Shown: one piece after another, positions 17,275 to 44,378 of the stretch
Position numbering within the stretch: the first letter of the stretch is position 1
Layout: each line of letters begins with the position of its first letter
NCBI GenBank assembly: GCA_018656485.1
Contig: JABIAA010000050.1
Span: 1 to 44,378, forward strand
DNA length: 44,378 nucleotides
Direction of reading: 5' to 3'
DNA from: a bacterium
Lineage (GTDB): Bacteria; Babelota; Babeliae; Babelales; GCA-2401785
The notes under the pieces: generated by a model
Seen by the model: the letters and a program-made list of their open reading frames with translations, nothing else
The model's database searches: none
What the model was told of the DNA's origin: nothing
Translations under genes and position numbers: made by a program

Positions 17275-18303
17275 TCAATAGCTAGCGATTTTAATAGAAA
17301 GCAGCATGTACTCATAAAAAGTAACACCTGAATTCTTATACGAATCAAGTATAGACTTCGCCTCATCACCGGAAAAACCAACGTCGCCAAAATCTATGTC
17401 GTAATTTCCAAGTGGAACATGTTTATTCAAATCAGCCAAGCGCTGACAAGTGGCAACCACATGACACTTATGCATCGGAAAATCAAGAGGGAACCCAAAA
17501 CCTCCCTTGTTAACTTTAAGGACATCCTGCTTGAAGTTGGCAATGGCACCCTTAGTGTCTAAGATGGGGGGATAGTTCTCAAGGTTACCCATTACCACCA
17601 ACAAATAATCTAAAAAAGGAAGCTCTGACTCTAGATAGCAATCTACCATTCTCTTCGCCCAGTCTGAATCCGGACAAATCCCACAAAATTTTATATCTAG
17701 GCTACCAACCGGAAGAGATCTATTATGGTGCGCCAAAGTACTAAGTACATCAACCATAGTTGGCTTACCTCTAGAATCTAGATGTCGCACAGGACCGAAA
17801 AAACTCGTAACCTCATTCGGATTTAAAGCTCTCACAGACCCTTTGGGCTCTCTTGTAACTCTTGGCCTTGCAACCGCGGCTTCACGCACCTTCCTGTATG
17901 CAGGAAGAGGACTATCTTTTTTCGGAAAATCAACCCTATCATCGAGAAGATCTAAACAACTTTGTCCATCGGCTAGTTCCGCATCAATCCTACCATCACA
18001 GATTGCTGGCATAACATCCTGAATGCGCAGGCCTTCGAATTTTTCACAATATTTCTTTATCCGATCACGAAATGCCCTGCCTTGCTCATCGCCAAGAACC
18101 TTATCAATATTTTTACAAAAAGCTTTGCATTGACCGTCATTAAACTTTGCAGGGCTCACGATACATTCTACCCAATTTTTAAACATCCCCTCCTTCACAG
18201 GGAGTTTTATATTTTCAAGCGGCTTTGTTTTTTTGGGCGCAGAAAAAACATTGCACGAAATTGCGAAAAAACACACAAGCGAAATTGATCGAATAGAAAT
18301 CAT
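17275..18303 (-). CDS. secreted protein, paralog family B, member 2 (internally duplicated C-terminal domain)
   Basis: The signal peptide is MISIRSISLVCFFAISCNVFS. Two copies of a roughly 60-aa module are present (..LPVGSLDIKFCGI..AKRMVDCYLES..FLDYLL and ..VPLGNYDIDFGDV..AKSILDSYKNS..FYEYML). Confidence 0.8.
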   Translation of the reverse strand: MISIRSISLVCFFAISCNVFSAPKKTKPLENIKLPVKEGMFKNWVECIVSPAKFNDGQCKAFCKNIDKVLGDEQGRAFRDRIKKYCEKFEGLRIQDVMPAICDGRIDAELADGQSCLDLLDDRVDFPKKDSPLPAYRKVREAAVARPRVTREPKGSVRALNPNEVTSFFGPVRHLDSRGKPTMVDVLSTLAHHNRSLPVGSLDIKFCGICPDSDWAKRMVDCYLESELPFLDYLLVVMGNLENYPPILDTKGAIANFKQDVLKVNKGGFGFPLDFPMHKCHVVATCQRLADLNKHVPLGNYDIDFGDVGFSGDEAKSILDSYKNSGVTFYEYMLLSIKIASY

Positions 18304-40242: not shown

Positions 40243-40803
40243 ATGAAACGTATTATTGCTCCAATGGTCGCTATCGCGATGTTCGCAGGAATGGGCTATG
40301 CAGGCGGAGACGATGCACCAAAGGCAGAAAAAACCCCTTGGGCACCTGAGTGGAGACATCACAGTGTTGACACCCTCGGAGCTTTTACAACTCTCGCACT
40401 TCTCACACTCAAGGACAATAGCTGGAAATTTGACAAGGGTCTTGTCGACGCATTGAAGGGTCGATTCTCCAACGTTCCAAAAACAGCGACAACACTTGGC
40501 CTGATGGCAGGAACATGGTTCGCCTTAGAACTCCTACAAAACAAAATCGCTAGATCTGGCTGGAAAGTCTACCCTCACACATGGGAAGACACCAAGGCAC
40601 TTGTCAGTGGTGAAAATAAAGCAGCAACGTGGAAGACACTTGGAAAATCATTTGTTGTTCCTTACGGTAAAGCACCAAAGCCACCGAAGGAAAAAGATCC
40701 AGTAGATCCACCAAAAGAAAAAGATGTACCGAAACCTGAAGCCGAACAAAAAGACACAGCTGCGCCAGCACCAGCACCAGCAACAGAAGAAAGCAGCAAA
40801 TAA
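40243..40803 (+). CDS. secreted protein with a Pro/Lys-rich C-terminus
   Basis: GAAGGA RBS. The signal peptide is MKRIIAPMVAIAMFAGMGYAG. The C-terminus reads PKPPKEKDPVDPPKEKDVPKPE. Confidence 0.7.
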   Translation: MKRIIAPMVAIAMFAGMGYAGGDDAPKAEKTPWAPEWRHHSVDTLGAFTTLALLTLKDNSWKFDKGLVDALKGRFSNVPKTATTLGLMAGTWFALELLQNKIARSGWKVYPHTWEDTKALVSGENKAATWKTLGKSFVVPYGKAPKPPKEKDPVDPPKEKDVPKPEAEQKDTAAPAPAPATEESSK

Positions 40804-40859
40804 AAATCTCGGCATTGGTAACTGAAGTGAACTTCTAGTAAGTTTTACTTCGTTAAAAA

Positions 40860-40893
40860 AGAGCTCGGAGCTAAACTCCCGGGCTCTTTTTTT
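40860..40893 (+). terminator. rho-independent terminator
   Basis: AGAGCTCGGAG-loop-CTCCCGGGCTCT is followed by TTTTTTTAT. Confidence 0.7.
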
Positions 40894-41008
40894 ATTTCTT
40901 CTGCAAGCAAAGTTTTCTCCCATTTTTTTAAAGCCTTCACAATAAAAAAAACACTGATACTATTGGGCCAACGCGAACACAATCATTTCACAAAGTGGGG
41001 AAAGACTC

Positions 41009-41680
41009 ATGAAACGCATCGTAACAAATATTGCTGTTGTCGCATTGGCTGCAGGAAGTATATCCGCAGGAAATTTCTACGAAGAAATGGAACAGTTCAG
41101 GACAAAAGAAAAGCAAATCTATGAAAATTGGAACAAAAAGCTTTGGGAACAAGTAGGCAACGCAGAAACATATAAGCTCGACGATTGGTTTTTTGGGGAA
41201 ACTTTGAAAGCAAAGCGATCAATTTTTTCTCCGGAAAACTACAAGCAATTGATGAGAATAGAAAAAGAAGAACGACAGACCAAGTTTGAAAAGACAATAT
41301 TAGAAGAATCACAAAAAGCAGCAAACGGAATTATAAATTCAGAGTCTAGGAAAAAAGAGACTCAAAAGTTGAAAGCAAAAAAGGGAAGAATCAAAGAAGT
41401 CTTTAAAACAGCTTTGGAAGAAATAAAAAATTGCGAAAATGTGGAAGATCTTCTGGAGAAGGTCTTCCACATTCTGCTAATGGAACGGGAAGCAACCGGC
41501 TGCCAACATCTCGATCTGGCCAGAAGATACATATATAACATAAAACTTGCCATGAGCCTGGAAGAAGGAGACGATGCAAAACTTGCTTTTGCTAAAAAAG
41601 AAGCAGACGAATTAATTACTGATAAAATCGAGCTAAACATCCGGATCATCGATGCAACGCTTGAAATCGTTGCAGACTAA
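41009..41680 (+). CDS. secreted helical protein
   Basis: GGGGA RBS. The signal peptide is MKRIVTNIAVVALAAGSISAG. The mature part is K/E-rich and looks helical. Confidence 0.7.
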   Translation: MKRIVTNIAVVALAAGSISAGNFYEEMEQFRTKEKQIYENWNKKLWEQVGNAETYKLDDWFFGETLKAKRSIFSPENYKQLMRIEKEERQTKFEKTILEESQKAANGIINSESRKKETQKLKAKKGRIKEVFKTALEEIKNCENVEDLLEKVFHILLMEREATGCQHLDLARRYIYNIKLAMSLEEGDDAKLAFAKKEADELITDKIELNIRIIDATLEIVAD

Positions 41681-41702
41681 CAATCCAAGATAGTACCTTG
41701 TG

Positions 41703-41737
41703 CCCCAGCAGTGTTACCATTGCTGGGGTTTATTTTA
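41703..41737 (+). terminator. rho-independent terminator
   Basis: CCCCAGCA-gtgttaccat-TGCTGGGG is followed by TTTATTTTAT. Confidence 0.7.
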
Positions 41738-41739
41738 TC

Positions 41740-42297
41740 ATGAAAAAATTTACTACCTTCGTAGCCACAATATTTTTGTTGTCCCATGGAACATGCGCAG
41801 CAGAAGGAATCGCACGGCAGGCAATTTTTCCAGTCGGGTTTATCGTTATTGGAATGATTTTTGACTTCATGCAATCGAAGCAGAAAAATCCGCTGTTAAA
41901 ACGGGAGGCTGAGGATCTTAGAAAATTCTTTGAATCCCAAAGCTATGACCAAATCGATGAGGCGCTGCAAAAATATTCATGGGCACAAGAGTTGGCAAAC
42001 GAAATTGAAACTACTGCTACATCCAAAGGACTCGACAAAATAGCAACACTCAAAGAAGCCAAGGGCGACGACTTCCGCTCGTACCAATCAAAACGCACAG
42101 GAACTAGGGGCTTCACACGCAACCTCAAGAAGATTTGCACCGACACCGTGGATTCAGTTGCACACCGCAATGGCAAGACCATAAAAAATTTATTTGACCA
42201 CCACTTCAATAAATTTGTACTACTTGCCACATTTGCACTAGCCGTAGGAATCTATGCGAAAAAGCATCATCGCACTCAAAGTTTAAAACCCCTTTAA
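41740..42297 (+). CDS. membrane protein (signal peptide plus two further hydrophobic segments)
   Basis: ATG at 41740 gives MKKFTTFVATIFLLSHGTCAA. A second hydrophobic segment is AIFPVGFIVIGMIFDF. A C-terminal anchor is FVLLATFALAVGIYA. Confidence 0.65.
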   Translation: MKKFTTFVATIFLLSHGTCAAEGIARQAIFPVGFIVIGMIFDFMQSKQKNPLLKREAEDLRKFFESQSYDQIDEALQKYSWAQELANEIETTATSKGLDKIATLKEAKGDDFRSYQSKRTGTRGFTRNLKKICTDTVDSVAHRNGKTIKNLFDHHFNKFVLLATFALAVGIYAKKHHRTQSLKPL

Positions 42298-42453
42298 AAA
42301 CCAACTCGTTCATTATTGCAATTGCCCGAAAACATTGTAGCCTTGGTAGCATCAAACTTGGGACCCTAGAACCATCTGGAGCGCTGAGACCGCACACAAT
42401 CTGACAAGCAACTGAATAATTTAATAACCAGATATTTTTTAAAAGGAACGAAG

Positions 42454-43122
42454 ATGAAATTTATTTCGGCAATCCTCGCACTCGCCTTGTGCAGCACGAT
42501 AAGTTATGGACAAGAATTTGATCAAGAAGAATTGAAAGCCAAATACCAAGAAGCATTAAAAGTTGCCAGTGAAATTTCACCTTCCCAGCACGCTCACCTC
42601 TTGGGAGCATTTGAACTAATCCGTGTTTCAAAGATTAACACAGACGAACTCAATCGCATCGCCGACCACAATTTCATGGCCAAACTCGATCGCGTCGGTC
42701 TTCTAACGACTATTCCACAACAACCCATAATACAACCCGCAATCCAACTTGCAATCCAACTTTACACTATCGCCTCTGGAATAACTGTATCAATTATATT
42801 AAAAGCAAAATCCCTCTTGAACAAAGCACAACAAATAGATTTCGAAGACAAACAAGCGACTTTAGACTTCTTGAAAATGTTAGCCAACAATTGGGATACA
42901 TATAAAAAAAAGAGCAAGGCTGAGCAGATGGGGATAGAAAGATCTCTAACGATCATAAAAGAATTGATTACCTGCCATAAGAATGATTCTTCCCTTGTAG
43001 AAGCCAAATGTTGGTTCGATGCCAAATCTAAAGAAATAAAACAGCTTAAAGAAACATCAAAGAACTTGATTGACACTTTGGTAAGCTTGCAACACACACT
43101 TATAGGTCTATCCAAAAACTAG
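42454..43122 (+). CDS. secreted protein, ILALALC signal-peptide family, member 1
   Basis: AAGGAA RBS. The N-terminus is MKFISAILALALCSTISYG. Confidence 0.7.
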   Translation: MKFISAILALALCSTISYGQEFDQEELKAKYQEALKVASEISPSQHAHLLGAFELIRVSKINTDELNRIADHNFMAKLDRVGLLTTIPQQPIIQPAIQLAIQLYTIASGITVSIILKAKSLLNKAQQIDFEDKQATLDFLKMLANNWDTYKKKSKAEQMGIERSLTIIKELITCHKNDSSLVEAKCWFDAKSKEIKQLKETSKNLIDTLVSLQHTLIGLSKN

Positions 43123-43134
43123 TAGGCGAAAAAT

Positions 43135-43683
43135 ATGAAAATCATTTACGCAATCCTCGCACTCGCTTTATGCGGATCACTTAATGCTGGATACGCTGAA
43201 GACAACGGACACATTTACAAGAGAGCAATCGAAAGAGCCAGGCATTACTTGGAACTCGATGAAGGCGCAGAAGTCGGATACGACGAGCTATCTGCCGCCG
43301 ATAAAATCATAAAGCACATGTGTGACGACATAAACAAAAAAAATCGAATTTCGCCCCAAAGAAACCTTGAAGAATACAGTGATTATCAAAATTTGTTGGG
43401 AGAACGAGTAGACATCAACGTCGCTATGGCCGTTTTACGAACTATTGAATCCGAGCTGGAGTACAAACAAATTAGGCAAAGAGTTGAATGGGTGACAGAA
43501 AAGACCCGTGAAGAAAGCAAGCAAAGAATAGAAGAGAGTGAACAGAGACATAAAGAAACCGAATGGATAAGGAAAGAAACAAACGAGCTGATTGAAGAAA
43601 GAACCAGGCTAGTGAGGGAAGAAACTAATGATTTTTGTCAATCCAACAGAAATGCCGAAGAATTCTGCTGCACAATCCTTTAG
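43135..43683 (+). CDS. secreted protein, ILALALC signal-peptide family, member 2
   Basis: The N-terminus is MKIIYAILALALCGSLNAG. The C-terminal half is E/R/K-rich. Confidence 0.7.
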   Translation: MKIIYAILALALCGSLNAGYAEDNGHIYKRAIERARHYLELDEGAEVGYDELSAADKIIKHMCDDINKKNRISPQRNLEEYSDYQNLLGERVDINVAMAVLRTIESELEYKQIRQRVEWVTEKTREESKQRIEESEQRHKETEWIRKETNELIEERTRLVREETNDFCQSNRNAEEFCCTIL

Positions 43684-43792
43684 CCCACAATGCAATTACC
43701 ACTCGAGATATTTTTGACATAAAAATCCCTGGGAAACAAGCACATCCATTGCTAATTTTGAAATCAAATATTTTTTGATGCAAGGAAAAAAG

Positions 43793-44125
43793 ATGAAACT
43801 TATTGCCGCAATCCTCGCACTCGCTTTGTGCAACACCGCAAGTTATGCAACATTTGACCAAGTCGAGTTCCCCGACGAAGAAGCCCTTCCGATTTTCGTT
43901 AAGTATCACCCAAATCAAAAAGATAAAAAAGGTGTTTCTTCATTAGACATGTTGGCACTTGAAGGAGTCATACGCTGGGAACTATGCGAATGTTACCTTC
44001 GAGGCCATGAAATTGAAAGATTTGGAGAATTACTTCATGACTACATCGTGGCTGCGGAAAAGAAAATTGGATTAGCAAGCACCGCAATGATACAGGATAT
44101 ACAACAACATTTGGGGAATAAATGA
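43793..44125 (+). CDS. secreted protein, ILALALC signal-peptide family, member 3
   Basis: ATG at 43793 follows AAGGAAAAAAG. The N-terminus is MKLIAAILALALCNTASYA. Confidence 0.65.
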   Translation: MKLIAAILALALCNTASYATFDQVEFPDEEALPIFVKYHPNQKDKKGVSSLDMLALEGVIRWELCECYLRGHEIERFGELLHDYIVAAEKKIGLASTAMIQDIQQHLGNK

Positions 44126-44187
44126 AACTTATTACAACAATCCTCGCACTCGCTTTGTGCGAAGAATCAATGCGCACCTTAAGTTAA
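44122..44187 (+). pseudogene. truncated fourth copy of the ILALALC signal-peptide cassette (21 codons)
   Basis: It reads [21 protein letters not shown]-stop. The ATG overlaps the previous stop (ATGA). Its 3' end overlaps the glyA stop codon on the opposite strand. Confidence 0.55.
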
Positions 44188-44378
44188 TTTATCTAACGTG
44201 AGAATTCGGGCAATTCTTTCCGCAACGCACTCGAAATCTTTTTCGACAAAACCTCGTGTCGTCATTGCTGGTGTTCCAATGCGAATTCCGCTTGGGTTCA
44301 TTGGACTTGAAGAATCGAATGGAATGACATTGCGGTTCACGATAATTCCGTGTTGCTCAAGTTTTTTCTCCGCCTCTT
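44179..44378 (-). CDS. glyA: serine hydroxymethyltransferase, C-terminal 65 codons (5' end outside window)
   Basis: The translation [38 protein letters not shown] matches the conserved GlyA C-terminal region (N.N.IPFD...P...SGIR.GTPA.TTRG). Confidence 0.85.

Follow-up and report, generated by a model that had tools for sequence, protein, structure and literature searches.

A leader repeat shared by four neighbouring open reading frames beside glyA in a probable Dependentiae genome

Four consecutive plus-strand open reading frames (ORFs), here called g1 to g4, begin with the same short leader near the end of the window analysed here, the 44,378-nucleotide (nt) contig JABIAA010000050.1 of a bacterial genome assembly (GCA_018656485.1; GTDB order Babelales). 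The leader repeat is private to this locus, the proteins behind it are orphans, leader and gene bodies differ in age, and comparable sharing of leaders recurs across the genome, where it is linked to the adjacency of the genes concerned. From these observations we infer gene conversion as the mechanism and, on balance, lean towards an old tandem family whose leaders have been kept alike by such conversion.

The repeat and the genes that carry it

An exact search recovered the 16-nt core of the leader, CAATCCTCGCACTCGC, in four plus-strand copies, which start at 42470, 43151, 43809 and 44138 and each lie at +17 of an ORF. This agrees with an earlier reading of the DNA made without database searches (the sequence-only reading), which had also described the four consecutive plus-strand starts and the peptide that they encode, MK(F/I/L)I..ILALALC. 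Dinucleotide-preserving shuffles gave a chance expectation of 0.02 copies, with four copies being reached in 0 of 100 shuffles, and no fifth copy emerged even when two mismatches were allowed. With a repeat finder, the full unit was delimited as 44 nt with 86-100% identity, extending from 5 nt before the ATG through the TGC codon of Cys13. The copies and the ORFs that carry them are as follows.

Leader repeat copy 1: 42449..42492, plus strand, 44 nt, 16-nt core at 42470-42485
Leader repeat copy 2: 43130..43173, plus strand, 44 nt, 16-nt core at 43151-43166
Leader repeat copy 3: 43788..43831, plus strand, 44 nt, 16-nt core at 43809-43824
Leader repeat copy 4: 44117..44160, plus strand, 44 nt, 16-nt core at 44138-44153
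g1: 42454..43122, plus strand, ORF of 222 amino acids (aa) with leader MKFISAILALALC, called as a gene in three other assemblies, no family
g2: 43135..43683, plus strand, ORF of 182 aa with leader MKIIYAILALALC, no Pfam or NCBIfam family
g3: 43793..44125, plus strand, ORF of 110 aa with leader MKLIAAILALALC, no homolog
g4: 44122..44187, plus strand, ORF, a leader-only stub of 21 codons

The lengths of 222, 182 and 110 aa are those of the full precursors, and not of the mature regions as the sequence-only reading had it. The ORFs are closely packed: g2 starts 12 nt past the stop of g1, and the ATG of g4 overlaps the stop of g3 (ATGA). As had been noted before, g4 stops after 21 codons and runs into the end of glyA, its last 9 nt overlapping the 3' end of that gene on the opposite strand (the minus-strand glyA ORF ends at 44179).

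Apart from the four copies at the locus, neither the 16-mer nor a 23-mer was found in the 1.16-Mb genome, in 40 relatives or in public genome and metagenome collections, and a dispersed cassette was rejected for this reason. Three further public assemblies, obtained from different samples, match the locus over 4.7-6.0 kb with 100% identity. The repeat is therefore not an assembly artefact, and the comparison of the four identical assemblies revealed none of the cassette-mediated rearrangements that had been envisaged.

No family was found in Pfam or NCBIfam for g1-g3 or for three upstream neighbours, u1-u3, described below (six proteins in all, with sub-threshold noise only). Homologs of g1, g2 and g3 were absent from 150 genomes of the order and from 5.8 billion clustered proteins, and a full HMMER scan of 1.8 billion representatives returned no homolog of g1. 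The single weak match to g1, P0004, is a charged repeat protein and was discarded as spurious. As judged from these searches, g1-g3 are strict orphans.

Read by eye, the leaders consist of MK and a hydrophobic run of about ten residues that ends in ILALAL, followed by C-S-T-I-S-Y-G, C-G-S-L-N-A-G or C-N-T-A-S-Y-A. A Sec signal peptide of the signal peptidase I (SPase I) type would be expected to have a positively charged n-region, 7-15 hydrophobic residues in the h-region and small residues at -3 and -1 of the c-region. A crude in-house sequence filter for signal-peptide-like ORFs let all three proteins g1-g3 through. Their products are predicted to be Sec-exported and may play a role in host interaction. 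The lipobox [LVI][ASTVI][GAS]C does not occur in g1-g4, where L-A-L precedes the invariant Cys13 and the residue at -1 is Leu. The AlphaFold2 models, computed without an alignment, were all-helical for g1, in which residues from about 86 to 118 form an internal hydrophobic segment (predicted local distance difference test, pLDDT, of 52), and helical for g3 (pLDDT of 43), values of too low confidence for fold searches. The C-terminal half of the g2 protein is charged and helical.

Relative age of leaders and bodies

At seven degenerate positions of the leader (K2, I4, I7, L8, A9, L10 and C13) the same codon is used in all four copies, for which the joint probability is about 8e-10 under the codon usage of this genome. 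Furthermore, the signal-peptide regions of the genome display no preference for CTC or GCA. Chance or codon bias behind the identity of the leaders was rejected on the basis of this probability, the shuffles and the lack of a CTC preference. The seven matching codons cannot have been chosen independently, and the g1-g4 leaders are related by DNA descent.

The sequence-only reading had described the leader as identical at synonymous positions. This holds for the seven codons above but not for codons 11 (GCC/GCT) and 12 (TTG/TTA), which differ synonymously among the copies, and the pairwise Nei-Gojobori proportions of synonymous (pS) and non-synonymous (pN) differences over the 13 leader codons, which contain about nine synonymous sites, are 0.10-0.45 and 0.07-0.10. 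At the nucleotide level, the leaders are 78-87% identical among the copies. The 16-nt core corresponds to about 3.7 synonymous sites, and by simple arithmetic the complete lack of changes there is an event of about 1 in 10 at the leader's own divergence. The perfect identity of the core therefore adds little and is weak evidence alone.

Had the genes arisen by duplication of whole genes at the age of the leader (10-18% nucleotide difference), even neutrally evolving bodies would be expected to retain about 70% or more DNA identity, whereas the observed identity is at the random level. The leader is therefore younger than the gene bodies. A recent whole-gene duplication is excluded, the bodies being unalignable despite the low divergence of the leaders; the sequence-only reading had named such a duplication, combined with a 16-mer that occurs nowhere else, as a result that would weaken its case, and the 16-mer is indeed private. 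The same contrast in age excludes homologous bodies that are simply fast-evolving as the full explanation. This leaves three ways to account for the leader DNA: homogenisation by gene conversion, transplantation by partial duplication or fusion, or selection at the nucleotide level.

The gene bodies were compared using BLASTP and shuffle-calibrated Smith-Waterman alignments. Those of g1 and g2 (z = 0.8-1.0) and of g2 and g3 (z = 0.5-0.6) are at background, in accordance with the earlier statement that the mature regions have no obvious similarity to one another. The statement falls short for g1 and g3, where the C-terminal half of g1 shows a weak match to g3 (z = 3.0-3.7, p about 0.005-0.015) and one alignment, in register, begins exactly at Cys+1 (z = 2.0). 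Similarly, the claim that similarity is confined to the leader is correct for g2 and g4, which share nothing upstream of -5 with the other copies, but not for g1 and g3. These two share about 40 nt of the 5' untranslated region (5'UTR) and are 53% identical in amino acids over residues 1-46, i.e. for about 30 residues past Cys13. Their similarity forms a gradient, from about 80% in the 5'UTR and 87% in the leader to the 53% amino-acid identity over residues 1-46, and then to the weak signal in the remainder of the proteins.

g1 5'UTR: 42417..42453, plus strand, with an AAGGA Shine-Dalgarno sequence, about 79-85% identical to the g3 5'UTR
g3 5'UTR: 43753..43792, plus strand, counterpart of the g1 5'UTR

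Two further ideas on the bodies were tried. A frameshift hypothesis, under which the bodies would be homologous DNA translated in different frames, was rejected: neither local alignment of the DNA nor any of the 27 combinations of frames rose above shuffle level, save for g1/g3 in frame. An internal duplication of g1 was unsupported by the comparison of its N-terminal and C-terminal halves (z = -0.5).

Leader sharing across the genome and its possible causes

Across the genome, 531 signal-peptide-like ORFs of at least 100 aa were collected. Leaders paired at random have an identity of 35 ± 8% across their first 45 nt. Leader pairs that are at least 70% identical number 44, of which 31 consist of neighbouring genes on the same strand. 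Beyond g1-g4, a common leader occurs in about 20 families of neighbouring genes, every family having a leader sequence of its own; examples are found on contigs C122 (23573/26103), C106 (2066/3315), C19, C123, C49, C41, C103 and C8. The leaders of these families are 73-96% identical over 45 nt; in the mature parts, identity is 63% at most and falls to an undetectable level in the C41 trio, the C19 pair and C103. The window itself contains further leader-sharing neighbours, a minus-strand pair with the leader MISIRSISLVCF... (starts near 18303 and 17196). In several families the leader identity spans the stretch from the ATG to the predicted cleavage region, and in others it includes 25-45 nt upstream. 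The C122 pair, for instance, is identical at 60 of 63 nt, with nothing in common upstream and 24% amino-acid identity in the body. In C123, C93b and C49 almost all leader differences are non-synonymous and the synonymous sites are intact, which points to young DNA rather than to long purifying selection.

Against ascertainment bias, an unbiased set of paralog pairs was picked by mature similarity only. Overall, leader identity in this set is about equal to mature identity, and a general hyper-conservation of leaders in all paralogs was rejected, the two identities being similar unless the genes are neighbours. Among anciently diverged pairs, a leader identity of at least 70% was observed for 11 of 54 neighbours versus 6 of 231 non-neighbours (odds ratio 9.6, p = 2e-5). 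The genome of the window is unusually rich in leader-sharing neighbours: a 278-kb sample of G002, a relative from the same family, contained one leader-sharing pair among 108 signal-peptide-like ORFs, and a 400-kb sample of G016, from another family, contained none among 158. Since the sharing depends on adjacency and each family has its own leader, local recombination, by gene conversion over short tracts or by partial duplication of 5' ends, fits these data better than a function intrinsic to the sequence.

In the account that we favour, conversion-maintained leaders on an old tandem family, g1-g3 would be lineage-specific genes arrayed in tandem within an island of fast turnover, and the bacterium that carries them a member of the Dependentiae with a small genome, probably a parasite of protists. 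Their bodies would be either very old paralogs that have diverged past recognition, with a trace kept in g1/g3, or unrelated sequences; the first 39 coding nt together with the 5 nt upstream (the 44-nt unit) are much younger. Short-tract gene conversion of the RecA type between adjacent copies would keep the leaders alike, and recA is present in the genome. The leader would be the sole stretch where amino-acid constraint has left enough identity for recombination, the flanks having escaped and drifting freely. Finally, g4 would be all that remains of a fourth copy, its 5' end, after the body had been lost beside glyA. Recombination or gene conversion acting on the leader had been one of two options in the sequence-only reading, and it stands as the better one since the leaders have a common DNA ancestry and the bodies do not.

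Several points weigh against this account. The exact identity extends over only 16-23 nt, and for efficient recombination RecA usually requires a stretch at least that long. Codons 3, 5 and 6 are heavily diverged within the leader, so that any conversion tract must be very short or old, and the tiny number of synonymous sites makes the ages imprecise. Nothing indicates that the g2 and g4 bodies once shared homology with those of g1 and g3. Moreover, the four assemblies are identical at the locus, and no strain variant or relative shows conversion directly.

Alternatively, the leader may have been transplanted, a 5' module consisting of the start region and the signal peptide having been put before unrelated sequence by partial duplication or illegitimate recombination, thereby making new exported proteins. 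We consider this somewhat unlikely. It would account for the g2 and g4 bodies, which have no detectable relation to g1/g3, and for the conserved block in these two genes, which begins at most 5 nt from the ATG with the upstream sequence unshared. It is made plausible by the C19 pair (reverse-strand starts 3032 and 5145), where an 88-nt block (41 nt upstream plus 47 coding) with two mismatches is common to ORFs of 675 aa and 76 aa that are otherwise unrelated, and which looks like a partial 5' duplication. A published precedent also exists in the Borrelia erp genes (PMC10016077). However, transplantation requires that several illegitimate joins were all in frame and fell at almost the same codon, and the decay of similarity between g1 and g3 is graded, not abrupt. 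The genome-wide continuum from homologous to undetectable bodies under equally conserved leaders is more simply explained by divergence together with conversion.

Quite improbable, in our view, is a function of the nucleotide sequence itself, be it as an mRNA element in which the UCCUC of the core pairs with the Shine-Dalgarno sequence, as a small RNA target co-regulating the four starts or as a protein-binding DNA site. Variability within the leader is lowest in the core, every copy has a small inverted repeat (GCAC...GTGC or CGCA...TGCG), and the minimum free energy folds of g1 and g3 pair the Shine-Dalgarno AGGA with the core UCCU (4 bp). On the other hand, the folds of the four start regions are no better than those of shuffles (z = 0.55, 0.77, -0.5 and -1.2), no Rfam match was found in 42400-44200, and the genome holds no complementary sequence or antisense partner elsewhere. 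With so few synonymous sites in the core, its invariance is weak evidence, and the other families keep quite different leaders, doing so only between neighbours. Together with the dependence on adjacency, these results speak against the other option of the sequence-only reading, selection on the RNA itself.

Programmed variation, in which the direct repeats would serve as recombinase sites for deleting or shuffling cassettes as in Mycoplasma vpma/vsp/vsa or an integron, is exceedingly improbable: it would suit four direct repeats at the gene starts of an array of surface or secreted genes, and in vpma and vsp it is at conserved 5' ends that recombination takes place (PMC2268961), but the 44-kb contig lacks any recombinase gene, the recombinases of the genome are limited to two of the tyrosine type (PF00589, contigs C92 and C114) with none of the serine type (PF00239), inversion switching is impossible with repeats that are all direct, every gene has its own start codon, and the arrangement is the same in four assemblies from different samples.

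Locus context, related systems and significance

The genome (1.16 Mb in 139 contigs, 44% GC, 95.6% complete) falls within the range of 0.8-1.9 Mb of the order's genomes. The best named relative of its glyA comes from a 'Candidatus Dependentiae' metagenome-assembled genome (57% identity), and the genome probably belongs to the Dependentiae. Together with u1-u3, g1-g4 form a 4-kb plus-strand island (40243-44187) located between a nitroreductase gene and glyA. The remaining features of this region are listed here.

u1: 40243-40803, plus strand, orphan with a predicted signal peptide, leader unlike g1-g4
u2: 41009-41680, plus strand, orphan with a predicted signal peptide, leader unlike g1-g4
u3: 41740-42297, plus strand, orphan with a predicted signal peptide, leader unlike g1-g4
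Terminator-like hairpin: 44141..44165, minus strand, TCTTCGCAC-AAAGCGA-GTGCGAGGA, then TTGTTGTAAT, made from the g4 leader copy
glyA 3' end: 44179..44378, minus strand, serine hydroxymethyltransferase (PF00464), running on past the window

In G001, a relative from the same family, the genes nusB-efp-nitroreductase-glyA-GT4-asnB-ugd are contiguous, the nitroreductase gene and glyA being separated by about 100 nt, and in G004 the distance from efp to glyA is about 320 nt. In G002, the equivalent gap is occupied by three different orphan ORFs, which are on the plus strand and have signal peptides. The absence of the island from the syntenic sites of these relatives (L101 in G001, L103 in G004 and L102 in G002) identifies it as a lineage-specific insertion at a variable spot, and the different orphans at the same place in G002 mark the site next to glyA as a hot spot for new secreted-protein genes.

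The minus-strand hairpin comprises 9 bp and starts 14 nt past the glyA stop. Bases specific to g4 (GAAGA) lengthen its stem, and the g4 stub may persist as the terminator hairpin of glyA. The idea that the leader derives from an ancestral terminator of glyA was unsupported, the 3' flanks of glyA being different in relatives.

The upstream ORFs have features of their own. The u1 protein ends in a tail rich in Pro and Lys, where a 27-nt tandem repeat specifies PPKEKD (40679-40725), and the coding region of u2 contains a near-perfect 17-nt inverted repeat, AATGTGGAAGATCTTCT / AGAAGGTCTTCCACATT, with a 2-nt spacer (41438-41473). In u3, a signal-peptide-like start is directly followed by a second hydrophobic segment, and a hydrophobic anchor is located at the C-terminus; its product probably resides in a membrane instead of being secreted in soluble form.

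Among known systems, the closest is that of the erp genes of Borrelia burgdorferi (ospE/ospF/elp, with an 'upstream homology box', UHB) on cp32 prophages, for which a published analysis arrives at one promoter/leader origin, many body origins and frequent recombination (PMC10016077), and g1-g4 behave like these genes. In both, a conserved start region and leader precede mature parts with little or no similarity between differing groups (PMC10016077), the alike leaders of g1-g4 standing on bodies that cannot be aligned. Erp proteins are lipoproteins with a conserved promoter/operator, sorting residues, allelic sites on multiple plasmid prophages and known host ligands. In contrast, g1-g4 are tandem and chromosomal, lying between housekeeping genes and not on a cp32-like prophage, have a conserved block of about 44 nt and lack a lipobox. 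Neither a Pfam/NCBIfam match nor homologs connect them to erp, and their upstream sequence is shared by g1 and g3 only, whereas a UHB-type promoter/operator is common to all members.

A similar likeness is found with vpma of Mycoplasma agalactiae and vsp of M. bovis, clusters of surface genes in reduced genomes that have a conserved 5'UTR and signal peptide and differing mature parts (PMC2268961). These clusters switch through inversions by the tyrosine recombinases Xer1/Mbr; the site used is 72 nt long and precedes the ATG, there is one promoter only, and the genes point either way (PMC2268961). Unlike them, g1-g4 have no adjacent recombinase and a single orientation, and no variants were seen in four assemblies. 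In conotoxin superfamilies, too, a conserved signal sequence defines the family and the mature peptides are hypervariable (PMC3862624). Conotoxins, however, are eukaryotic, have signal and mature regions on separate exons and keep a cysteine framework, and the mechanism behind them is debated and does not require conversion (PMC3862624). With no homology, no lipobox, no shared promoter save in g1/g3 and no recombinase, g1-g4 belong to none of the erp, vpma/vsp and conotoxin families. The locus alone reveals no new mechanism, the same pattern being documented in Borrelia and Mycoplasma.

Closer to the present lineage, large secretomes of orphans with signal peptides are described for the Dependentiae: in Chromulinavorax destructans, a small-genome protist parasite, 44% of the coding sequences have signal peptides, and ORFans are enriched among these (PMC6561590). 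The hundreds of signal-peptide-like ORFs and the orphan arrays of the genome studied here match this description, and the passages of that paper that were searched make no mention of nucleotide-conserved leaders on divergent neighbours.

Dependentiae are un- or barely cultured protist parasites, and manipulation of the host is the presumed role of their large secretomes of orphan proteins. A broader idea, which we hold to be unlikely, is that the 5' ends encoding signal peptides act as general recombination handles in this Dependentiae lineage, leader blocks being repeatedly copied or converted between neighbours, sometimes onto unrelated or non-coding sequence, and new exported proteins thereby being minted at a high rate. 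If true, such leader handles would be a bacterial analogue of exon shuffling for effectors. At this locus and at about 20 similar ones in the 1.16-Mb genome, genes for secreted proteins that lie side by side retain or exchange their export leader as the divergence of their bodies goes on without limit, which offers a concrete, testable picture of how the repertoire of a secretome evolves in a reduced genome.

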